Assembly: GCA_041489355.1 (NCBI GenBank)
Contig: JBGPRB010000002.1
Span: 1-39,394, forward strand
Source of the DNA: Dehalococcoidia bacterium
GTDB taxonomy: Bacteria > Chloroflexota > Dehalococcoidia > Dehalococcoidales > RBG-16-60-22
Direction: 5' to 3'
DNA length: 39,394 nt
Below, one piece after another: positions 23,438 through 36,360 of this stretch (the stretch's first letter is position 1; every line of letters begins with the position of its first letter). Under the pieces are notes generated by a model. That model searched no databases and was not told the DNA's origin. It saw only the letters and a list, made by a program, of their open reading frames with translations. The position numbers and the translations under genes were made by a program.

Positions 23438-24898
23438 TTACTTGCTGATAATAATGTTGAAGGAAACCCCCGCGCTCGCGCTATCATTAATGGATGTAAT
23501 GCGAACGTCAGAGAACTTCCCGAGTGCCTCCAGAGCGGTAACGTAACCGACAACTGTGAAGGCGTTGTCAGCTCCACCCGTCATGGTTATCTGGTTTTTG
23601 CCCACTTCGACAGATGTGAAATAGGCTCCAGAGGGGAGGGCATCGGTAACCAGTTTGAGATTATAAGCGAAGTCGCCGCCGGCACTTAAGAAGTATTGAT
23701 ATTCCTGCCTGGCAGTTTCTGTATCAGCAATTACTTTATTTGTTGTGTCTGTAATTTGCTTTGCCTTGTCAGCTAAAAGCGTTGCTTGATTAAGTTCCTG
23801 ATTAAGCCCGGCCAGCTCCGTTTGCAGGCGCGTGGTTTCAGCATCTGTCTGGCTTCTAAGCTGGTTCATGGGAAGTAGCAGTCCCAGGCCAGTTAATACC
23901 GCCAGGAATAAAAGAACAAGTGGTAGTCTTATCCAGCTTTTCCGAATCCCAAACTGACCAGAGAGTATGTTAAGGTTTATGTCGCGGAAGTATGTGCTCT
24001 GGCCATTAGTAGCTGGCTTCATTGGCAGCTTTTTCAAAGCCAGACCGATATTGGTGGCAAACGATGCGGCTGGCAAGTCAGGAGGTAATTTCAACGGCGG
24101 CTTCAGAGGCTCGACGGGGTGTCCGACCTCAGCCGAAATAAGTTCTCTGGTGGCAACATCAGCTGATAATTCTCCGGTCACTAATAAAGATGCAGTAGTA
24201 CTAAGAGGACTCTGGGGGTGATTATTATTATAGAACTCCACCGTCTTTAATAACTCGTCAGCCAATTTCCGTATATTCTCCTCCATGGTCGCTCCCGGCC
24301 CTCTGGGAGAAATAGTATGCATAATCGCCGGCATACCGTCAGCGATAAGAACAATATCAAAACAATCCGACTCCATATTTACTATTATGGCTTCTCTCCG
24401 ATGGGCTACCCTCGCCAACGCCAGCGGATTCAGGTCGATAACGTAAGGCTGTATATCAACCTCTCCCAGTGCCTGTACTAAAACATCGATAGGGTTACGC
24501 GGCACTCCCAGAATGAGGAAACCCGCTTCATCAGCCCCATTGCTGATAGCCTGCCCGCAGAGGTATAACTCTTCGGGCGGCAATAACATTTCTCTCCTGG
24601 CTGCCCGCTGGATGGCCTCGGACAGGGAATCACGTTCCATTCGCGGCAGGGTCAGGATGCGGTGGATAAAGGACAAGCCGGTAAGGCTGGTGATGACACG
24701 CTTTTTGGTAATGCCTGTTGATTTAAATAAAGAATTAATCACCGCCCCGACAACCTTCGGTCGTAGAATAAGTCCGTCCTTGACCAGCCCCGGCGGCAAT
24801 GGCATACTACCCCATTTTTCTACCTCTCTTCCCCTGACAGAGAGGAGCCTGACACTGGTAGAGCTAATATTTAACGTGACATAAGTTCTTCCACTCAT
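23438..24898 (-). CDS. pilM: Type IV pilus assembly protein PilM fused to a PilN-like TM/coiled-coil domain
   Basis: The N-terminal portion of about 320 aa is actin-like PilM. It is followed by an INLN motif, a TM helix (LVLLFLAVLTGLGLLL), a coiled coil and a PilN-like C-terminus. Confidence 0.78.
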   Translation of the reverse strand: MSGRTYVTLNISSTSVRLLSVRGREVEKWGSMPLPPGLVKDGLILRPKVVGAVINSLFKSTGITKKRVITSLTGLSFIHRILTLPRMERDSLSEAIQRAARREMLLPPEELYLCGQAISNGADEAGFLILGVPRNPIDVLVQALGEVDIQPYVIDLNPLALARVAHRREAIIVNMESDCFDIVLIADGMPAIMHTISPRGPGATMEENIRKLADELLKTVEFYNNNHPQSPLSTTASLLVTGELSADVATRELISAEVGHPVEPLKPPLKLPPDLPAASFATNIGLALKKLPMKPATNGQSTYFRDINLNILSGQFGIRKSWIRLPLVLLFLAVLTGLGLLLPMNQLRSQTDAETTRLQTELAGLNQELNQATLLADKAKQITDTTNKVIADTETARQEYQYFLSAGGDFAYNLKLVTDALPSGAYFTSVEVGKNQITMTGGADNAFTVVGYVTALEALGKFSDVRITSINDSASAGVSFNIIISK

Positions 24899-26797: not shown

Positions 26798-28009
26798 TTA
26801 GTGTAAAGACCTGAGTATGGAGTACAGCGGCGTTATCATGGAAGCGCCCATAAAAGCGACCACCAGTCCGACCACTACAATTAAAGCCGGTTCTATCACT
26901 GATATCATGGCGTGAATCGACTGTTCAACCCTGCGCTCATAATAGTCGGCTATTTTTACCAGTGTTGTATCCAGGGTGCCCGTCATCTCTCCTATATTGG
27001 CCATCTCTATCAGAAGGTGAGGAAATACACTATTTTTAGCCATCGATTGCGATAGACTCCGTCCCTGAACCAGCTTACCTCCGACCTCCTCCAGTGCCTG
27101 GCGGATGATTATATTCCCCACGGTTTTAGTGGCAATATTCATTATCTGCGGCATGGGAAGTCCGGCTTTCAGCAACATTGAAGCTGTCTGGCAGAAGCGA
27201 CCGATACTACGCTGGGTACTGATAGCGCTGATTAGCGGAATTTTTAATATTAGCTTGTCCAGAGTTAGTTTCCCGGCTGGCAGCCTTATATAACCAAAAA
27301 CCAGGATAATCAGAGCGCCCAGCCCACCGATAAAATAAAACTTATAGTCTCTGGAAAAATTGCCCATAACCAGGAGTAACTTTGTTATCCACGGTAGTTC
27401 AGCACCAAGCGAGGTGTAGAGTCGGGTTAGCGATGGCAGCACTATGGTTGTCAGCAGGATAAATACCCCGAACGCCATCAGCAGCACCACTGCAGGATAT
27501 ATCAAAGCATGTCCGACTCTTTTTGCGGCGGCTTTCTCTGTCTCCAGATAGCCAGCCATGCGCTTCAGAGCTACCTCAAGGTTACCCGTGGCTTCGCTGG
27601 CTCTAATCATCTGGCAATAAATATCGGAAAATACCTGGGGATATCTGCTCAGAGCCTGGGATAAAGAGTTGCCTTCCTGAAGGTCCCTGGCCAACCCTTT
27701 AAGGATTTTCCTCAGGGCAGCCGAAGGAGCCTGTTCTTCAAGCAGTTGCAGAGCCGTCAGGATAGGAATTCCGGCCTCAATCAGGGCGGCAAGCTGATGT
27801 GAAAAATCAATAACCTGCTGAGTTTTAACTCCGAACAAACTTGGCAGCAACCGGCGTAAATTCAGGCTGGGGCTTATTTCTCTCAGCTTAAGGACGCGGT
27901 GATACCCAGCCCGGTACAGGGCATCCTCCGCCATCCTTTCGGAGGTGGCATCAATGGTGCCCTGGATAATCTTTTTATCGATAGTATAAACACTATACCA
28001 ATACGCCAT
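26798..28009 (-). CDS. pilC: Type IV pilus platform protein PilC (GspF family)
   Basis: Two GspF repeats and three TM segments. Start set at ATG 28009 (AAGGA upstream), which overlaps the pilB end by 17 nt. Confidence 0.9.
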   Translation of the reverse strand: MAYWYSVYTIDKKIIQGTIDATSERMAEDALYRAGYHRVLKLREISPSLNLRRLLPSLFGVKTQQVIDFSHQLAALIEAGIPILTALQLLEEQAPSAALRKILKGLARDLQEGNSLSQALSRYPQVFSDIYCQMIRASEATGNLEVALKRMAGYLETEKAAAKRVGHALIYPAVVLLMAFGVFILLTTIVLPSLTRLYTSLGAELPWITKLLLVMGNFSRDYKFYFIGGLGALIILVFGYIRLPAGKLTLDKLILKIPLISAISTQRSIGRFCQTASMLLKAGLPMPQIMNIATKTVGNIIIRQALEEVGGKLVQGRSLSQSMAKNSVFPHLLIEMANIGEMTGTLDTTLVKIADYYERRVEQSIHAMISVIEPALIVVVGLVVAFMGASMITPLYSILRSLH

Positions 28010-29744
28010 AATTTCCTTTTGAATGATTCCGGGTATCGACACTAACAGAGTACACGCTGCGCAGTACCTCACTCATTGAAGTAATACCCTGGGCGACTTT
28101 CAGCATTCCGTCATGTCTCATGCTGACCATGCCTTCCTTGATAGCCTGCCTTCTGATATCGCTGGCACTGGCATTACCAAGCAGCATCGCCCGGCTTTCA
28201 TCACTTACAGGCAATACTTCAAAAATTCCCGTCCGTCCCCGGTAGCCAGTGTGGGCGCAGAGATTACACCCCACCCCTTTATAAAAGACAGGCGGCGGTT
28301 GTTCCATCTCTTCCTCGTAGGCTGTTAACTCAGCCCCAGATGGTTGGTACGTTGTCCGGCAGCCGGTGCAGATGCGACGAACCATGCGTTGCGCTACAAC
28401 ACCAACCAGCGTCGGAGGGAAAAGAGATGGTTCATCACACATATTTATCAGCCGTAAAAGCACGCTGATGGCATCATTGGCATGAACTGAAGACAGCACT
28501 AGGTGTCCGGTGATGGCAGCCTGCACGGCTGTTGTCGCTGTTTCTCTATCGCGAATCTCGCCCAGAAGGATAACATCGGGGTCCTGGCGCATCATTGCTC
28601 GTAGACCGCTGACAAAAGTAATACCAGCTTTGGCATTGACCTGCGTCTGGCTGATATCTGTGAACCGGTATTCAACAGGGTCCTCAATGGTTAAAATATT
28701 ACGCTCTTTATTATTAAGCTGGGTAATCGATGTGTACAGGGTGGTTGTTTTACCCGAGCCGGTGGGACCCCCCACCACTATCATGCCGAAGGGACAGTTC
28801 AACATCGCCTGGTATTTCTCCAGAGCATAAGGCTGGAAACCTAACTCAGGGAGATTGAAAATAAATTGAAACTTATCCAGAATCCGTAAAGTAACCCGTT
28901 CGCCGTACACTGTATCCGTGGTAGCAACACGAACATCAATATCCCTTTCCCCTGTCCTGAAGGTAAATTGACCATCCTGAGGACTTTTCTGTTGAGCAAT
29001 ATCCATCTTAGCCAGTATTTTGAGCCTGGATACCAGTTCTTCGTTGGCATTGAGAGGTAGTGAGTGTATATCATGTAGAATACCATCAATGCGGTAGCGA
29101 ACTCGTAGTCTGTTTTCCTGCGGTTCAAAATGAATATCTGAAGCCCTATCCCTGACAGCCTGTTCGATGAGCAAATCCAGACTTTCCGCAATAGGTGTCG
29201 TGGCATTTAGCTCCGAGCTAACCTCGGCGTCTCCGATAAGGGCAGGTACTGATTTGCTTACCTGTCTCTCTATTTTTTCGCCTGACCTGTAGTTCAGGTC
29301 AATTGCCCATTCAATATCAGCCGGGACGCCGACGGCTACCTCAATCCTCATCTCAGTTTGAACTTTGAGGTCCTCGATCGTCTGTATATCCTCCGGGTCA
29401 GCCATCACCACGACCAGCGAATCACCGATGACATCCAGCGGGATTAGGGTATGTTTTCGGGCGATGTCCTCAGGAATTAATCTCAGGGCATCGGGGTGAA
29501 CCATGTGTCTCTTCAGGTCGATTAGAGGAAAATTCAGCTGGATGCTGATGGCCTGTGCCAGCTCCTCAGCTTTGAGTAGCCCCCGGGTCACCAGGATATT
29601 ACCGAGTCTGCCCTTCTGAATCTGCTGTAGCTGCAGAGCTTCCTCCAGTTGTTCAGCGGTAATAAACCTCTGCTCAACCAGGATTTCACCCAGACTCTTT
29701 CTTTGTATCTTGGTGATAACTCCCTTTGATTCTTGCCTTTTCAT
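27993..29744 (-). CDS. pilB: Type IV pilus assembly ATPase PilB (GspE family) with MshEN-type N-terminal domain
   Basis: Walker A GPTGSGKT and tetracysteine CTGC...CNLC. N-terminal tandem RLGxxLVxxGLLxxxxLxxALxxQ motifs. Start set at ATG 29744, which forms ATGA with the upstream stop; the ORF-track start at 29840 would overlap by 100 nt. Confidence 0.92.
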   Translation of the reverse strand: MKRQESKGVITKIQRKSLGEILVEQRFITAEQLEEALQLQQIQKGRLGNILVTRGLLKAEELAQAISIQLNFPLIDLKRHMVHPDALRLIPEDIARKHTLIPLDVIGDSLVVVMADPEDIQTIEDLKVQTEMRIEVAVGVPADIEWAIDLNYRSGEKIERQVSKSVPALIGDAEVSSELNATTPIAESLDLLIEQAVRDRASDIHFEPQENRLRVRYRIDGILHDIHSLPLNANEELVSRLKILAKMDIAQQKSPQDGQFTFRTGERDIDVRVATTDTVYGERVTLRILDKFQFIFNLPELGFQPYALEKYQAMLNCPFGMIVVGGPTGSGKTTTLYTSITQLNNKERNILTIEDPVEYRFTDISQTQVNAKAGITFVSGLRAMMRQDPDVILLGEIRDRETATTAVQAAITGHLVLSSVHANDAISVLLRLINMCDEPSLFPPTLVGVVAQRMVRRICTGCRTTYQPSGAELTAYEEEMEQPPPVFYKGVGCNLCAHTGYRGRTGIFEVLPVSDESRAMLLGNASASDIRRQAIKEGMVSMRHDGMLKVAQGITSMSEVLRSVYSVSVDTRNHSKGNYGVLV

Positions 29745-30898
29745 GTTCTTTTTACCACGCTGCGTGAAACGCTGTCTTTGGTTATTTCCGTGGCGATAAT
29801 ACGCTGAGCCAACTCCTTTATGGAACAGGCCATGGGGCAATCGTCATTATTAATTATTGTGGCCTGATTACCCGGTGATGATGTCATGGCACCAGCCTCA
29901 TAAGGTATAATTCCCCATATGCTCACGGCAATGTTAGGTTCAATATATGATTTTATGCTGGGGAGTTCCTTTTGGGAGAAGGTTCCTACCGGATCAGTAA
30001 CCACAGCGCCGATTCGTTTTATAGAGATGCCCAGGAAACGCAAGACGGTAATGGTGGACTTCACTCCTGTCAGGGCTTCAGTGGTGTAGTCACTGACTAT
30101 AATGGCGAGGTCGCATTGCGAAAGAAACGACCTGGTAAGAGCCGTCGGTTGAAACGGCAGATCGACCAGAAAATAATCGGTAGCCTCTCTGAACCTGTCA
30201 AGCGGAAAATCAATATCTTCGGGTATCGTGTCCCCGGAAGGCTGTTGGATACGTATCACACCTACGCCTGTTTCGTGAACCACCAATGCTGGCTCCATAA
30301 CACGACGACCAGGAGCATCTGCAGGCATCTGTACGAGCCGACGGATTGCACTTTTAGGTTTGATTCCGAGACGCTCAGAAATACTACCTTCATAGGGACA
30401 AAGGTCAACGGCGATAACCTGTTTCCCCATTTGCGCCAAAGCAATGGCTACGTTGACCACAACAGTCGTTGTCCCTACTTTCTCTTTAGAGCCAATAAAG
30501 ACGACCATTGGGGAACGAGCATCAGCTTTCTGGGCCAGGAGACCGTCTACCTTGCTGACGATTTCTGAAGGAGTAGCGGGCTTGGTGAGATAATCGTCCG
30601 CACCCATACTTAATCCATTGGCGATATCAGTTCGCTGTGCTTTGCCCGAGAGCATAAGAATGAGTGGTTGCGGCGTTTGTATTTCAGCCCGCAAACGATG
30701 GCAGACCTCCAGACCGTCAATACCTGGTAACATTACATTCAGAATAATGAGGTCAGGCACCTCCTTCCGGGCTATTTGTAGCCCTTCCAGGCCGTTTGAC
30801 GTGGTGAATACCTGATAGCCACGTTTTTTCAGTACATACTCCATCAGCCGAATGGCAATTGGGTCATCCTCGATAACCAGTATCCTCTTACCCATCAT
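29741..30898 (-). CDS. TadZ/CpaE-like protein: receiver-like domain (Asp to Asn at acceptor) + ParA/MinD-like domain with degenerate Walker A
   Basis: The receiver domain is otherwise canonical (EDD, TKP), but LIILNVMLPGIDG carries N54 where the phospho-Asp is expected. The P-loop reads GSKEKVGTTT versus the MinD-type SGKGGVGKTT. Confidence 0.75.
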   Translation of the reverse strand: MMGKRILVIEDDPIAIRLMEYVLKKRGYQVFTTSNGLEGLQIARKEVPDLIILNVMLPGIDGLEVCHRLRAEIQTPQPLILMLSGKAQRTDIANGLSMGADDYLTKPATPSEIVSKVDGLLAQKADARSPMVVFIGSKEKVGTTTVVVNVAIALAQMGKQVIAVDLCPYEGSISERLGIKPKSAIRRLVQMPADAPGRRVMEPALVVHETGVGVIRIQQPSGDTIPEDIDFPLDRFREATDYFLVDLPFQPTALTRSFLSQCDLAIIVSDYTTEALTGVKSTITVLRFLGISIKRIGAVVTDPVGTFSQKELPSIKSYIEPNIAVSIWGIIPYEAGAMTSSPGNQATIINNDDCPMACSIKELAQRIIATEITKDSVSRSVVKRT

Positions 30899-30899
30899 C

Positions 30900-33629
30900 T
30901 CACCTGTTATCCTGTTTCAGAGGTATCGTGAAACTGAAAGTGCTGCCGGCTCCTTCGACACTTTCTACCCATATGCGTCCACCATGGGCTTCGATAATAC
31001 GCTTTGAGATATAAAGGCCAAGGCCCAACCCTCCAACCCTGGTGGTGCTTTTTACCTGGTAAAATTTTTCAAAAAGGGATTTTCTAGCCTCTTCAGCAAT
31101 CCCAATACCCTGGTCAGTAACCTGTACCAGCAAATCGTTACCTCTGACTTCAGCACTGACATCGATGCTACCGCCATCGTTGCTAAATTTAATGGCGTTA
31201 TCAAGAAGATTGAACATCACCTGCCTTAATCGCTGGCTATCTGCTTCAATATCGAGTAGTTGTAAGGGTATATTTTCCTTTATCACTATATTTTTCTGCC
31301 TGGCCACACTATTAAAATCCCGTATGGTACCTTGGAGTAAATCTGCTATCGCGACCCGTTCCTTATTGATATCGAAACGTTCCGATTCGATTGGTGAAAT
31401 GTCAAGTAGTTCATCAACCAGCTTGCGAAGGTGCTCGCTCTGGCCGGCGATAATGGTCAGAAATTCTTTCTGCGTCTCAGTATTTGATACATCACCTTCG
31501 AGTAATAACTTGGTAAAGGCCAAAACTGAGTGCAGCGGAGCTCGCAGTTCATGCACGATATTAGACATGAACTCAGATTGCATTGGGTCGAGATTGTACC
31601 TCTTTTCCGCAGCCTTGGTCATAGCTTCTTCCAGGACTGCCTTGGCGGCTTCGGCTTCCTCTCTGGCGATTCTGGATTCTTCGTTAGCCCTGGCAACGGC
31701 CTTAGCTGAGGCAGTCCTGACTTCCTCAGCCTCCTCTCGTGCCAGTCTGGCTTCTTCATTGGCTTTAGCCACGGCTTTATTTGAAGCTACCTTGGCAGCC
31801 TCGGCTTCCTCTCTGGCCAGTTTGACCTCTTTATCGGCCTTAGCTTTCTCCTTAGCCGAGATTGTTTTAATTTCTTCGACTTCTTCCAGCGCCAGCCGGG
31901 TTTCTTTATTGGCCTTGGCAACGGCTGTGGCCGAAGCTATCCTGGTTGCATCAGCTTCCTCTCGTGCCAGCCTAGCTTCTTCAGCGGCTTTAGCTGCAGC
32001 TATCTTGGCAGCTTCAGCTTCCTCTCTGGCCAACTTGGCCTCCTTGTTAGCCTTGACAACGGCTTTGTTTGAGACTGTCTTGGCGGCTTCAGCCTCTTCT
32101 CTGGCTAGTCTGACCTCTTCACTGGCTTTGGCGATAGCCCTGGCTGAGGTTGCTTCGGCTTCCTCTCTAGCGAGCTTAGCTTCTTTAGTGGCTTTAGTTA
32201 TGGCCTTGGCTAAGGTCGCTTCGGCATCCTCCTGTATCAGTCTGGCCTCTTCTTCAGCTTTAGCCACAGCCTTGGCCGAGGCGGCCTTAATTTCCTCAGC
32301 TTCCTCTCGGGCCAGCTTGGCTTCTTCATTGGCCTTGGTGACAGCTCTAGCCGAGGCGGCCTTGACTTCTCCAACCTCTTCTCTGGCCAGCCGGGTTTCT
32401 TCATTGGCCTTGGCCAGGCTTGCTTCGGCATCTTCCTGTGCCAATCTTGCCTCTTGTTTGGCTTTAGCCACCGCTTTAGCCGAGGTTTTCTTAACTGTCT
32501 CGGCATCCTCTCGGGCCAGTCTAGCTTCTTCACTGGCCCTGGCTAAGACGGCCTTGGTTTCCTTAGCTTCCTCACTGGCCTTGGCTAAAGCAGCCTTGGC
32601 TTTATTAGCTTCCTCCCTGGCCAGCCTGGATTCTTCATTACCTTGAGACAAGACGCTTTTGATTTTCTCAGCTTCCTCCCTGGCCAGTCTGGCTTCTTCA
32701 TGGGCTTTAGCTGCAGCTTTAGTTGAAGCTATCTTGGCGACTTCTGCATCCTCTCTTGCCAGCTTGGCTTCCTCACTGGCCTTGGCTATGATTTTGGCTG
32801 ATGTTACTTTAACTGTTTCGGCATCCAATCGGGCTAACTTAGTCTCTTCCTCTACCCTCTTGCGTTCGGTAATATCGCGTAATGAAGCCAAGTAGGCAGT
32901 TTCTCCCTGGTACTTTATTTCCACCACTTTTACTTCCGCCACAAGATTTTCCCCGTCCCCACGGACTATGCCTAGCTCGGTCTTACCACCTTCAATCGCC
33001 TGCAACGAATCAATCGATTCTCCAAGCAGCTGTCCTGCTTTACAACCAAAGAGGGATTCCACAGCCGGATTGGCAAAACATACTGCTCCCTTCTGGTCCA
33101 CAATGATGATACCGTCAGGGTAACTCTTTATTATGTTAATAAATTGGGCTTCGCTGGACTCTGACTTCGACACAGACCACTGCTGAGCGATGGCATGGTA
33201 GATAGAGCGCGCCAACAGGTCTCTATTCAACTTTCCCTTGACCAAGCATTCCTGGGCGCCCTTTTTCAGTGCCTCAATCTTATCCTTTTCGTTATCGAGC
33301 GGGGACAATATGATGATAGGTATGCCGCCAACTTGAGCGCGCACCTGAGTTAAAGCCTGAAGGCCGCGACCATCCGGTACGCTCTGGTCCAGCAGGAGTA
33401 TATCAATACCTCCTCTGGTAAGACGCTCGATTCCCACGGATAGTCTATCGGCGTACTCCAGAGTGAAGGCCCCCATTACTGCCTGGGTTACCATCTTGCG
33501 TATCAGATAGGCTTCTTTATGGTCACCCGTGATTAGCAGGACCTTTATCGGTTTAATATCGGTTTTTAACCTGACGGCCGGCTCTGAGCTAAGACTTTTT
33601 AGGGGAATCCTGTTTTGGATCTTCTGCAT
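30900..33629 (-). CDS. Soluble hybrid sensor histidine kinase: REC - PAS - 416-aa repeat/coiled-coil - HisKA - HATPase_c
   Basis: REC with LLLDQSVPDG. PAS ending in LRDITERK. H-box SNIVHELRAPL. N box NLLDNAIKFS, G1 DQGIGI and G2 GGLGLGL. No TM segment. Confidence 0.85.
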   Translation of the reverse strand: MQKIQNRIPLKSLSSEPAVRLKTDIKPIKVLLITGDHKEAYLIRKMVTQAVMGAFTLEYADRLSVGIERLTRGGIDILLLDQSVPDGRGLQALTQVRAQVGGIPIIILSPLDNEKDKIEALKKGAQECLVKGKLNRDLLARSIYHAIAQQWSVSKSESSEAQFINIIKSYPDGIIIVDQKGAVCFANPAVESLFGCKAGQLLGESIDSLQAIEGGKTELGIVRGDGENLVAEVKVVEIKYQGETAYLASLRDITERKRVEEETKLARLDAETVKVTSAKIIAKASEEAKLAREDAEVAKIASTKAAAKAHEEARLAREEAEKIKSVLSQGNEESRLAREEANKAKAALAKASEEAKETKAVLARASEEARLAREDAETVKKTSAKAVAKAKQEARLAQEDAEASLAKANEETRLAREEVGEVKAASARAVTKANEEAKLAREEAEEIKAASAKAVAKAEEEARLIQEDAEATLAKAITKATKEAKLAREEAEATSARAIAKASEEVRLAREEAEAAKTVSNKAVVKANKEAKLAREEAEAAKIAAAKAAEEARLAREEADATRIASATAVAKANKETRLALEEVEEIKTISAKEKAKADKEVKLAREEAEAAKVASNKAVAKANEEARLAREEAEEVRTASAKAVARANEESRIAREEAEAAKAVLEEAMTKAAEKRYNLDPMQSEFMSNIVHELRAPLHSVLAFTKLLLEGDVSNTETQKEFLTIIAGQSEHLRKLVDELLDISPIESERFDINKERVAIADLLQGTIRDFNSVARQKNIVIKENIPLQLLDIEADSQRLRQVMFNLLDNAIKFSNDGGSIDVSAEVRGNDLLVQVTDQGIGIAEEARKSLFEKFYQVKSTTRVGGLGLGLYISKRIIEAHGGRIWVESVEGAGSTFSFTIPLKQDNR
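31602..32849 (-). repeat. About 18 tandem, diverged 75-nt (25-codon) coding repeats: EEARLAREEAEaaKxaSAKAVAKAN
   Basis: Residues 261-676 of the kinase. Unit starts fall at residues 261, 286, 311, 332, 353, 367, 392, 410, 435, 460, 482, 504, 529, 550, 575, 600, 625 and 650. Confidence 0.9.
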
Positions 33630-34081
33630 TCACATTCACCTTTTCCATTTTTCATGGCGCTCAAGGCCGATTTATTTGTCAAGACACTGCTACGCTTTCG
33701 AATAAAGCGCATTATCCAGCTTTAGCTCTTTAATCGCTATTCAAACACCATTTTCATTCAGTTTGGTCCGCTATTATTGATGACGGACATCCCCATAAAA
33801 AACTACATATTAGTCATACGGCTGTATGCCTTGTTCATGCCGCTCATTCATCCAGCTCCAACAGCTAAAAAACACAAGCCCATGAACTCCCAGCCTTGAC
33901 TCGCCGTACTTTTATATTTTTAGTCTTATCACCGACGAGTACAGCATCTGATGGAAAATAGGTAACCAGAAGCTGTACTCTGCCATCTTCCACGGGGCCA
34001 TCACACGCCGTGACGGCCCCGGCCGCCGTTGCCAGGTTATTATCACAGACCCCTATACAGCACTGCTTAACCTACTATTAA

Positions 34082-34435
34082 TTAGTGTTGCGTAACCAGC
34101 CCCGTAATATCGCACGTATAATTTGCACTGGTGGTGGCTGAGCGTAAGTAGTTCGGGTATAAGCCTTGGCCAATTGGGAAATCCGACATAGTGGCTGTCG
34201 CGGTAGTAGTAGCGTTCACCGAACTCATTATTAGCTGTGCCATCATCACGTCCATAGCTGTCTGGATAGTTACCAGCTCAGCCTTATCTGCCGCTGTCTC
34301 ACCCCTGTTACTGATTCCGGCGAAGTTGGGCAGAGCCACAGCCATCAATACTCCCAGAATGGCGATGACGATTACCAACTCGATTAAGGTAAAACCCCCG
34401 TTATTCCGATGTATCCTTCTGATTAACCCTTTCAT
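34082..34435 (-). CDS. Type IV (major) pilin
   Basis: MKGLIRRIHRNNGG/FTLIELVIVIAILG class III signal. AAGGAGG RBS. 117 aa. Confidence 0.8.
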   Translation of the reverse strand: MKGLIRRIHRNNGGFTLIELVIVIAILGVLMAVALPNFAGISNRGETAADKAELVTIQTAMDVMMAQLIMSSVNATTTATATMSDFPIGQGLYPNYLRSATTSANYTCDITGLVTQH

Positions 34436-34565: not shown

Positions 34566-34796
34566 TTAATCATTTTCTGACCTAAATTGGCCAATCGAGC
34601 TTATTCGGTTAGCCTCATGATTTAATCTATCGACATCATCCTCGGTAAAGAGTCTCCACCTTCTCCTATCTCTGTATTCGGGTAATTTCAAGTTCCCCTG
34701 TCTGAGCCACCTGAGTAAGGTAGTCCTGCTAATACCAACCATACGGCAAGCCTCGGAGGTTCTATAGTATTTCTGACCATTTAAGGCTATGGGCAT
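34566..34796 (-). CDS. Small HTH DNA-binding protein (MerR/excisionase-like HTH)
   Basis: Start moved to ATG 34796 (AGGAGG 7 nt upstream). YYRTSEACRMVGISRTTLLRWLRQG ... WRLFTEDDVDRL. Confidence 0.6.
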   Translation of the reverse strand: MPIALNGQKYYRTSEACRMVGISRTTLLRWLRQGNLKLPEYRDRRRWRLFTEDDVDRLNHEANRISSIGQFRSEND

Positions 34797-34857
34797 ATTA
34801 CTAATCCTCCTGTCTTCTCCATACACATTAAACAGGCTTGCTCTATTTTGATACAGG

Positions 34858-34886
34858 TTGACATAGTTTGGTCGTATTAATATTAA
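34858..34886 (+). promoter_or_regulatory. Strong consensus-like promoter TTGACA-17-TATTAA
   Basis: The -35 is at 34858-34863 and the -10 at 34881-34886. It lies about 360 nt upstream of the GAF-HD-GYP start. Confidence 0.45.
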
Positions 34887-35247
34887 TACCACTGCGACTG
34901 TTTCTGGTGAACAATACTAACCCTAGTTTTAACTGGAGGATTTACCCTAAAATAACTCAACTCTCAGATTCCCCAATTGATATCAAGCCATCAACCGGCC
35001 AGGTTCAATTTATTTCTGGCTGAGTCTATATTTCTCCTTTAGGCTCTCTTTTTTGATGGATATTGAAGAGAATATGGACCGTAAGGATATTTACTTAATC
35101 TTTGGTTCTTTCTGGCGCTTATTTATGGTTCATTTACCCCTTTGCTGCTATTAATAACATTATTGAAACCTGTGAAAACCCGGCTTGAGATGGCGAAAAA
35201 ACGTATCTGGCCATTCAGCTATATTTGACAGCTGATAAGGAGACAGG

Positions 35248-36360
35248 ATGCAGACTCTTCGGAAAAAAGAACCAGGAACAAATAAAAGTTTTGACCTGCT
35301 CAATAAAATATGGAGGGAAGTAGGTTCCGCCAAGCAGTTAGATACTATAATTACCAGTATCACGCAGATGGCCCGATATGCCCTCAATGCCTCGTTCTCA
35401 TCAATGTATCTTCTTGACGAAAAAAGTCATGAGCTGTTCTTGAGATGTACCAATGGTCCGATAGAAAATCAAATCAGGCGATTTCAAATGAATAATCAGG
35501 CTGGGATTACCGGCTGGGTAGCCCAGAACGGCCAGCCATTAATAGTCAATGATGTTAACAAAGACCCGCGCTTTAATAAATTAGTTGACGAAATTTATGG
35601 TTTCCCTACGAAGTCAATAATTTGTGTCCCGCTGATCGTTCACCGTGAAGTTATCGGTATCATCAAAGTAATTAATAAAGAGGGAGGCACTGATTTCGGC
35701 TGGCAGGACCTGCAAACCATGATGGCGGTAGCCGCAACGGCGGCGCTGACGGTAGAAAATCTCAAATTAAACGAATGCTTACAGGATTCTTATAAAAGTA
35801 CCGTCAACGCATTGGTGTCATTATCTGATACCAAGGAAATCACCGGTGGCGGCCACTCAAAACGCGTCGCCCAATATGCCCTTATGGGAGCAACTAATCT
35901 TTCTCTCTCGGAAGAAGAGAAACGAAATATTGAGTATGCGGCCATTCTTCATGACATCGGTAAACTCGCTATCCCCGATAGCATATTGAACAAGTCCGGT
36001 ACCTTAACTCACGAGGAATGGAGAGTATTGCGCAGTCACCCGCAGATAAGTTTCAATCTACTTAAATTAATCCCCTTTCTTGTAGAAGCCAGCCGGCTCA
36101 TTCTCTGTCACCACGAGAGGTATGACGGTATGGGGTATCCCTATGGGCTAAAAGGGGAAGCTATACCTCTTGGAGCTCGCTTGATAGCAGTCGCAGACGC
36201 TTTTGACAATATGACTACGGAGCACGCTTACCGCGCGGCAATCAGTACCAGAGACGCCTTTGTAGAGTTAGGTAAATGCGTGGGTAGTCAATTCTGCCCT
36301 GTTGCGGTAAAAGCATTCTACGCCGGCTTTCTCCGCACTCACCCTTCAGCCAAGCAATAA
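35248..36360 (+). CDS. GAF domain + HD-GYP domain protein (putative c-di-GMP phosphodiesterase)
   Basis: AAGGAG RBS. GAF (GITGWVAQNGQPLIVNDV..DPRF). HD-GYP signatures HSKRV, ILHDIGK and HHERYDGMGYPYG. Confidence 0.85.
   Translation: MQTLRKKEPGTNKSFDLLNKIWREVGSAKQLDTIITSITQMARYALNASFSSMYLLDEKSHELFLRCTNGPIENQIRRFQMNNQAGITGWVAQNGQPLIVNDVNKDPRFNKLVDEIYGFPTKSIICVPLIVHREVIGIIKVINKEGGTDFGWQDLQTMMAVAATAALTVENLKLNECLQDSYKSTVNALVSLSDTKEITGGGHSKRVAQYALMGATNLSLSEEEKRNIEYAAILHDIGKLAIPDSILNKSGTLTHEEWRVLRSHPQISFNLLKLIPFLVEASRLILCHHERYDGMGYPYGLKGEAIPLGARLIAVADAFDNMTTEHAYRAAISTRDAFVELGKCVGSQFCPVAVKAFYAGFLRTHPSAKQ

Follow-up and report, generated by a model that had tools for sequence, protein, structure and literature searches.

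A predicted coiled-coil stalk of variable length in a histidine kinase from a Chloroflexota pilus-like operon

Introduction

Coiled-coil linkers are the standard signal route in sensor kinases, and they are normally only a few turns long. What, then, is a kinase to do with a linker of more than 400 residues? The question is raised by a gene on the reverse strand of a 39,394-nt stretch of DNA from a Dehalococcoidia bacterium (assembly GCA_041489355.1, contig JBGPRB010000002.1, positions 1 to 39,394; hereafter the window), which encodes a 909-residue histidine kinase with a long repeat array between its PAS sensor and its DHp domain (Table 1). An original prediction, made from the letters of the DNA, had described this array as a rod inserted between the two domains, and had doubted that a signal could travel along it in the classical manner.

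Here we propose that residues 260–673 would form an unbroken alpha-helix in each chain, two of which would pair as a parallel, in-register stalk approximately 60 nm long. The stalk arose as the kinase's own pre-DHp helix was copied in tandem again and again, and it still grows and shrinks, almost only by whole-turn steps that leave its apolar seam continuous. It would keep the receiver (REC)–PAS head some tens of nanometres away from the catalytic core while displaying some 18 near-identical surfaces, and we suggest that its main role is that of a stiff spacer or scaffold arm, not that of a classical short allosteric linker. This account of a phase-preserving coiled-coil stalk with a spacer or scaffold role is the best explanation of the evidence and, taken as a whole, has in our view about an even chance of being right. 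The stalk is the hallmark of a kinase encoded in a conserved Chloroflexota pilus-like operon; while coiled-coil linkers are themselves well known, the amplification of a kinase linker to 17–89 nm under a whole-turn rule, inside a pilus operon, did not turn up in the full-text literature searched.

An array of old, diverged repeats

Segmented on the recurring anchor xEEARLAREEAE, the array resolves into 18 units lying head-to-tail, with lengths of 25 (eleven units), 22 (two), 21 (three), 18 (one) and 14 residues (one), for a total of 414 residues. These are the unit number and the list of lengths given by the original prediction, whose boundaries (nucleotides 31602–32849, residues 261–676) also hold to within three residues, the array now being placed at residues 260–673, nucleotides 31611–32852. 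At 0.148 nm per residue the 414 residues would extend about 61 nm, in agreement with the 60 nm proposed earlier.

The consensus of the unit is N-E-E-A-R-L-A-R-E-E-A-E-a-V-K-t-A-S-A-K-A-V-A-K-A. Alanine makes up 29.5% of the stalk and charged residues 42%, with two glycines and no proline in the 414 residues; proline is likewise absent from 13 of the 14 orthologue stalks checked (92–581 residues). Periods of 75 nt were detected in the DNA by Tandem Repeats Finder, and the 25-mers share 59% amino acid identity with one another at a mean nucleotide identity of 0.66, which bears out the earlier description of the DNA repeats as diverged. Third codon positions of the 25-mers are only 0.49–0.52 identical and thus near saturation. 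Since these positions have fallen to about half identity while 59% of the amino acids are conserved, the copies are old and individually maintained.

Databases of known families offer little by way of a name for this segment. Pfam gave no match in residues 261–676, even at E<=10, and searches of NCBIfam and of PDB sequences with the stalk returned nothing specific, with no curated family attaining its cut-off.

Origin of the repeat

To trace the source of the unit we drew on a comparison set of 82 ordinary kinases from the same homology match list (93,633 positions). In 25 of the 82, a motif located exactly 26 residues before the phospho-His is matched by the opening 12 residues of the unit, as in P0108 (SEEARLAREEAEKANVSKSQFLANMS-H), and a score this high is reached only 43 times among the 93,633 positions. 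On the strength of this match 26 residues upstream of the histidine, the stalk is the kinase's own pre-DHp helix in serial tandem duplication. It is therefore not a foreign insertion, as the wording of the original prediction had implied, but a local motif copied many times over.

Length variation and a whole-turn rule

A full-length search recovered approximately 28 orthologues (P0001–P0028; 585–1077 residues) in Chloroflexota metagenome-assembled genomes, where public annotations call them merely 'ATP-binding protein' or 'PAS domain S-box protein'. The comparison of repeat numbers among orthologues that had been suggested earlier gives a divided answer: the repeat block is retained, but the count of units is not fixed and runs from about 3 to about 24 (the orthologues are kin, and their unit counts are not independent events). 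Measured from the Asp of the PAS D-I-T motif to the phospho-His, the distance is 441 residues in the 909-residue kinase and 113–602 in the family (median 413), with 23 of the 28 orthologues at 363–602 and five at 113–220. Even relatives at 87–99% identity differ in length, by −14, +14, +25 and +89 residues, mostly at units 4–5, a hot spot at which P0005 has gained a multiple of 14 residues. Because repeat number varies in this way among orthologues, close relatives included, a ruler of fixed length, one of the roles envisaged at the outset, is excluded.

As an observation in its own right, 15 of the 28 orthologues fall at 375–441 residues between Asp and His despite differing in their units, some being built of pure 25-mers, others of 46-mers, of 56-mers, or of 11-mers plus 25-mers. 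This clustering may reflect stabilising selection on a length of approximately 60 nm.

What is far less free to vary is the size of the step. Across the 28 proteins, anchor-to-anchor spacings of 25 (218 instances), 21 (31), 22 (24), 18 (11), 11 (three) and 7 residues (one) were counted, composite longer spacings being split by eye into pieces of 14, 18, 21, 11 and 25 residues. The roughly 300 spacings thus all measure 25, 21, 22, 18, 11 or 7 residues or a combination of these lengths, save for a single genuine exception of 24 residues, located where the N-terminal part of the P0012 stalk is degenerate. The earlier claim that every unit length is a sum of 7s and 11s accordingly holds for this kinase and, with that single exception, for the family. 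Two further spacings are exceptions in appearance only: one of 10 stems from a spurious anchor, and one of 15, which is not of the form 7a+11b, amounts to 4.17 turns and lies within the tolerance for near-integer turns. In P0022 and P0028 the combinations 25+17 = 42 and 25+14+17 = 56 are exact multiples of 7, as though a stutter had been offset by a stammer. When non-25 spacings were classed at 60% identity, so as to limit repeated counts of units shared by descent, some 14 of the 15 independent short classes were of an allowed length, compared with about 36% by chance. The allowed set (7, 11, 14/15, 18, 21/22 and 25) comprises the lengths nearest to whole turns at 3.6 residues per turn, and for this reason the seam stays aligned along the entire stalk. 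A stricter version of the rule, in which the total linker would keep a constant phase (mod 7, 11, 18 or 25), was rejected, as all residues mod 7 occur among the Asp-to-His distances.

Two other searches add little on the distribution of such stalks. HMMER searches with the stalk alone gave 7 and 4 matches, all HisKA kinases, and missed the query's own protein; since composition filtering cost even this match, stalk-only searches cannot support a claim of rarity. A pattern scan of genome contigs with a generic H-box/N-box found ordinary kinases and was uninformative on orthologues.

One helix per chain, probably paired in parallel

That the stalk is helical rather than disordered, as originally proposed, is suggested by the lack of proline, by its periodicity and, at low confidence, by structure prediction. 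Fourier analysis of the small and apolar residues gives a sharp peak at a period of 3.57 residues (25/7), whose power of 5.4 compares with a maximum of 2.1 over 200 shuffles. A monomer model from AlphaFold2, for which 26 orthologues were aligned (the short orthologue P0024 supplying a second model), yields helix by DSSP at residues 254–326 and 341–676, with stalk pLDDT of 40–60; of the two lines of evidence, the sequence periodicity is the stronger.

When 164 distinct 25-mers of the family are combined into a profile, A4, A7, A11, V14, S18, A21, V/I22 and A25 fall within an arc of about 100 degrees. This seam reads a-d-a-d-a-d-e-h, that is, two heptads and a hendecad, and its core is mainly Ala/Ser, with Val/Ile at two positions. 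Along its flanks lie E3 and E10 on an acidic side and R8 and K15 on a basic side, and in the 909-residue kinase positions 3 and 8 are an acid and a base in 14 of 17 units, positions 10 and 15 in 14 of 14. Under standard coiled-coil rules, complementary g–e' charges indicate parallel pairing. Here the g–e' pairs (for the charge rules see PMC1592074) would be attractive in a parallel, in-register homodimer, whereas like charges would meet in an antiparallel one, and the former is therefore favoured. A separate argument for the same orientation comes from origin, since the homologous pre-DHp segment of sensor kinases is a parallel coiled coil leading into the DHp (PMC6798134). The stalk sequence thus shows both features expected of a coiled coil, an apolar seam with a period within 3.5–3.67 and complementary g–e' charges, and a 25-residue repeat (7+7+11) at 25/7 = 3.57 residues per turn would give a near-straight, weakly supercoiled rod.

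We infer both the dimer and its orientation from these patterns, and we are fairly confident of the structural picture as a whole: each chain contributes one helix, pairing is most likely as a parallel, in-register 25/7 coiled coil, and the rod grew by copying of the signalling helix and is held in phase by selection. Two other arrangements were considered. An antiparallel hairpin that would place REC near the DHp was rejected on the charge pattern together with the absence of a conserved turn. A membrane-binding amphipathic helix of the apolipoprotein, LEA or synuclein type is unlikely, since the units are homologous to the dimeric pre-DHp helix and carry their positive and negative charges on opposite flanks.

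Spacer arm, signalling wire or track?

Function is what we infer from the two ends of the stalk, its surface and its relatives. In 27 of 28 family members the stalk is set apart from DHp helix 1 by an Asp-Pro pair, 12 and 11 residues ahead of the phospho-His. Of this pair the aspartate (D681) is invariant and the proline (P682) is present in 25 of 26 aligned orthologues. No proline occurs within 25 residues upstream of the His in any of the 82 ordinary kinases. AlphaFold2 breaks the helix at 677–682, and again at the equivalent Asp-Pro of P0024, at low confidence in both models. The uninterrupted PAS-to-DHp helix that characterizes PAS kinases with continuous linkers is thus not found here, and the early doubt about classical signal transmission is strengthened by this conserved cap and the predicted break.

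A second kinase family, found in the same operon slot (P0032–P0036, P0121–P0125, P0131), is instructive in this regard. Its members are without REC-PAS and consist of a degenerate DHp-like N-terminus (40% identity over 42 residues to their own DHp, with no His), a 324-residue helical stalk of similar 25-mers with a period of 3.60, a G/P-rich linker of 20–35 residues, and DHp-CA. Because this sister family lacks REC-PAS and still keeps the stalk, the entity conserved in the operon is stalk plus kinase core, not a link from PAS to DHp.

We therefore prefer a spacer or scaffold arm on four grounds: the conserved Asp-Pro cap separates stalk from DHp, stalk length is very labile (a five-fold range), the sister family has a flexible linker at the same joint, and surface positions are conserved as well as the seam. 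Several points weigh against this preference or against the paired helix on which it builds. A single proline can kink a helix rather than uncouple it. The AlphaFold2 evidence is for a monomer, at stalk pLDDT of 40–60, and a core of Ala and Ser would hold two strands together only weakly. In every unit Leu6 (for example L265 and L290), 95% conserved or hydrophobic, lies some 120 degrees round the helix from the seam, where a simple two-stranded coiled coil does not account for it; the same leucine occurs in the ordinary pre-DHp motif too. The whole-turn rule could result in part from slippage bias between internal 3-, 4- and 7-residue sub-repeats, although the phase-compensated 42- and 56-residue units argue for selection.

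Further objections concern the junctions. Their offsets are fixed, with the first anchor at +8 after the Asp of D-I-T and the last anchor 44, 62 or 26 residues before the His, so that the three His-side variants differ by 18 residues, or five turns. Removal of the whole-turn units leaves an Asp-to-His remainder of 27 residues, which is 6 mod 7, and in ordinary PAS kinases from the same match list the distance is 20, 34, 41, 48, 62 or 104, always 6 mod 7. Fixed offsets and this remainder are at least as compatible with a phase-coupled wire as with a passive arm, and may be more so.

Such a wire is the rival that survives best, and we regard it as possible, if rather doubtful. A two-stranded coiled coil of 17–89 nm would relay a conformational change from REC-PAS to DHp, whether as rotation, as supercoiling or as a sliding of helices; whole-turn insertions and deletions would be tolerated since input and output stay in phase, with length otherwise free to evolve. 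Besides the junctions, which place the residual linker in the same class as those of ordinary PAS kinases, the wire gains from the stalk's being made of genuine copies of a signalling helix and from the strictness of the whole-turn rule, discrete phase-dependent linker lengths being the signature of signalling coiled coils (PMC6798134). It would, however, have to act across the Asp-Pro 11 residues before the His and the break predicted there, over lengths that range more than five-fold among orthologues, and through an Ala-rich core that is probably soft. Nor does it account readily for the sister family, where REC-PAS is missing and a G/P-rich linker precedes the DHp, or for the kinase's own REC, which is without a phospho-Asp in seven of 26 orthologues.

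Conservation on the surface, counted above in favour of the spacer or scaffold arm, could also mark a multivalent track or cytoskeleton-like element, a reading that we consider improbable. Some 18 surfaces, Leu6 included, would then bind copies of a partner such as the ParA/MinD-like ATPase or PilB, or stalks would associate laterally or out of register; in either form the result would be a scaffold for positioning the pilus machine. Surface positions E2, E3, R5, L6, R8, E9, E10, E12, K15, K20 and K24 are indeed conserved at 57–88% while silent sites are saturated, a ParA/MinD-type gene begins 1 nt after the kinase and is joined to PilB by an ATGA overlap, and stalk lengths cluster at approximately 360–460 residues in lineages with different unit make-up. 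There are precedents as well, in FrzS and AglZ, where a receiver with an extended coiled coil is a polar beacon for type IV pili (PMC9811614), and in Scy, a long coiled-coil protein partnering a ParA (PMC3718342). Yet partner and polymer are both hypothetical, the conserved charges could simply stabilize an Ala-cored helix pair, and orthologues with only about three units share the same operon.

It is very unlikely that the stalk is a single alpha-helix (SAH) or a low-complexity flexible spacer with no pairing between helices. The high content of charged residues, many of them in i/i+3 and i/i+4 acid–base pairs, and the low AlphaFold2 confidence would suit such a structure, but an SAH has no apolar seam, and here a clean, narrow one with a period of 3.57 accompanies the high alanine content; an SAH or a coil would offer no reason for a whole-turn rule, and the units are homologous to a known dimeric coiled-coil segment (PMC6798134). 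Assemblers can be misled by repeats, but an assembly artefact, or a pseudogene-like expansion, has next to no chance of being the explanation, since the copies are only 53–79% identical in DNA, the same 909-residue length recurs in several independent assemblies (including a 523-kb contig), and the stalk reading frame is intact and, judging from its codons, under purifying selection.

In this family the helix of ordinary linkers has been amplified up to about 24-fold under a strict whole-turn rule, and the orthologue series of 113–602 residues in one conserved operon is an unusual natural test case for the role of long coiled coils in signalling proteins. It makes testable both how far a two-stranded coiled coil transmits a signal and whether a kinase may instead employ a rod of this kind for spacing or docking at a pilus machine. 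Were the wire the true explanation, no other allosteric coiled coil known in a kinase would come near it in length, and the orthologues would be a natural length series for measuring the reach of a signal. The natural 25/7 (7+7+11) repeat with its Ala/Ser core should also be useful for coiled-coil design rules.

The kinase and its pilus operon

The layout of PAS, stalk and DHp is as first described, apart from an N-terminal REC domain that had been overlooked (Table 1). Both hallmarks of a HisKA-type sensor histidine kinase are present, a DHp with its H-box His and a HATPase_c domain, and D252, I253 and T254 of the PAS motif as well as H693 in HELRAPL are invariant among the aligned orthologues. 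The putative phospho-acceptor D81 is retained in 19 of 26 and replaced by A, K or C in seven, which suggests that in part of the family the head REC is drifting toward a pseudo-receiver. Since the highest Kyte-Doolittle 19-residue mean in the whole protein is only 1.23, a membrane segment is absent, and the picture of a soluble kinase in a pilus context stands. An open reading frame of 493 codons on the opposite strand (31165–32646, +), rich in Ser, Ala and Leu, crosses the repeat; it is almost certainly not a gene and mirrors the GCN/GAR-rich codons of the stalk.

Table 1. Features of the kinase gene and of the surrounding pilus block, with positions in the window.
Feature	Position	Strand	Evidence and remarks
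MerR-type HTH gene, head of block	34566..34892	-	Pfam; conserved synteny
Pilin with N-terminal methylation motif, directly upstream of kinase	34082..34435	-	Pfam; conserved synteny
Whole kinase gene	30900..33629	-	909-aa soluble kinase, REC-PAS-stalk-DHp-CA; open reading frame, Pfam, 28 orthologues
Receiver domain, residues 41-139	33213..33509	-	Pfam Response_reg 45.8 bits; putative phospho-Asp D81
PAS domain, residues 163-255	32865..33143	-	PAS_9, PAS_8 and PAS matches; C-terminal D-I-T motif 252-254
Stalk, residues 260-673, 18 tandem units	31611..32852	-	Segmentation, profile, period 3.57
Length-change hot spot, units 4-5, residues 331-365	32535..32639	-	14-residue sub-repeats such as SEEAKETKAVLARA
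N-L-D-P junction, residues 679-682	31584..31595	-	Conserved Asp-Pro pair capping the helix where the stalk meets DHp helix 1
HisKA/DHp, residues 684-750	31380..31580	-	HisKA 60.7 bits; phospho-His H693 in H-E-L-R-A-P-L
HATPase_c, residues 797-905	30915..31241	-	Pfam 113.5 bits vs cut-off 26.4
Receiver-like domain fused to ParA/MinD-type ATPase	29741..30898	-	Pfam; starts 1 nt past kinase stop
PilB-like assembly ATPase (MshEN + T2SSE)	27993..29741	-	Pfam; likely start ATG at 29741
PilC-like platform protein (T2SSF)	26798..28072	-	Pfam
PilM-PilN fusion, end of pilus block	23438..24898	-	Pfam; same position in L081, L083

The operon runs in the order MerR, pilin, kinase, pseudo-receiver–ParA/MinD, PilB, PilC, minor pilins and PilM/N, and the same order was observed for orthologues with very different stalks, P0010 (488 residues from Asp to His), P0028 (423) and P0027 (116). 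Kinase and REC-ParA genes are separated by 1 nt (junction at 30896–30902), and the REC-ParA stop overlaps the PilB start (ATGA, 29739–29745); the 615-residue PilB open reading frame, which was listed with a TTG start, is probably overlong by 33 codons. The rest of the block is similarly tight, save for a gap of 452 nt (33630–34081) between the pilin and kinase genes, in which a simple scan found no terminator-like site. A repeat-less relative, P0029, was considered as the ancestral orthologue and rejected, as its gene adjoins KaiB/KaiC rather than pilus genes.

The receiver-like domain of the ParA/MinD-type protein was compared across four loci (29741–30898 on the reverse strand here; L081:10897–12057, L082:10702–11865 and L083:9773–10933). 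In all four the phospho-acceptor position is Asn (N54), and the DD pair is retained, as are S84 and K106. Given this Asn in every locus, the domain is a conserved pseudo-receiver, and it is probably not the phosphorylation target of the kinase.

Adjoining the operon is a divergently oriented GAF-HD_5 (HD-GYP-like) gene (35248–36360, +), and the operon's PilB carries an MshEN domain; together these genes hint at control of the pilus by cyclic di-GMP. The pairing of GAF-HD_5 gene and operon recurs in L081 and is absent in L082 and L083.

Comparison with known systems

A search of full-text literature, on hendecad or 25-residue repeats or long coiled coils in kinases and on Chloroflexi pilus kinases, found no account of this family, and the closest parallels each share some of its features. 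Phage tape-measure and injectisome ruler proteins are repeat-built helical rulers. The trypanosome protein p197 is likewise a helical spacer or ruler built of repeats (PMC9546609). In all of these, as in the stalk, physical length is determined by how many helical repeats stand in tandem; in contrast to them, stalk length varies five-fold among orthologues, so no fixed distance is measured.

Coiled coils of the Scy/FilP type reportedly contain a 51-residue repeat mixing heptads and hendecads (Walshaw et al., in 2010). They are, like the stalk, long rods that mix 7s and 11s and are weakly supercoiled, and they partner a ParA-type ATPase (for the interplay of Scy and ParA, see PMC3718342). They differ in being cytoskeletal, in having no enzymatic domains, and in the length and sequence of the repeat.

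Closer in context are FrzS and AglZ of Myxococcus xanthus, in which a pseudo-receiver on an extended coiled coil localizes or docks pilus regulators (PMC9811614, PMC1974792). The combination of a receiver-type head, a long coiled coil and a pilus setting is common to both systems, as is a receiver that is often non-phosphorylatable, here in 7/26 orthologues. FrzS, however, lacks the kinase core, the PAS domain and any regular 25-residue repeat; no FrzS-like protein was present among the matches of the homology search, and the stalk kinase ends in DHp-CA.

The signalling helix, or S-helix (Anantharaman, Balaji and Aravind, 2006; PMC1592074), is a module of approximately 40 residues and five heptads with a diagnostic E-R-T signature. 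It resembles the stalk as a dimeric, parallel coiled-coil module placed between sensory and catalytic domains and stabilized by g–e charge pairing, but the 909-residue kinase has no ERT anywhere, and its stalk is 414 residues long and contains hendecads.

Nearest of all are the parallel coiled-coil linkers that join PAS or other sensors to the DHp, such as those of the YF1/FixL type (reviewed in PMC6798134). The stalk occupies the same position as the linkers of ordinary PAS kinases, from D-I-T to H-box, and its unit is their ordinary pre-DHp motif. Its lengths may likewise be discrete and bound to phase, in that the total from Asp to His takes every value mod 7 but leaves, once whole-turn units are subtracted, a remainder in the class of ordinary kinases. 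It departs from them in scale, with 113–602 residues between Asp and His as against 20–62 (and 104 in one case), in having a repeat of 25/7 rather than 7/2, and in the conserved Asp-Pro at its junction with the DHp.

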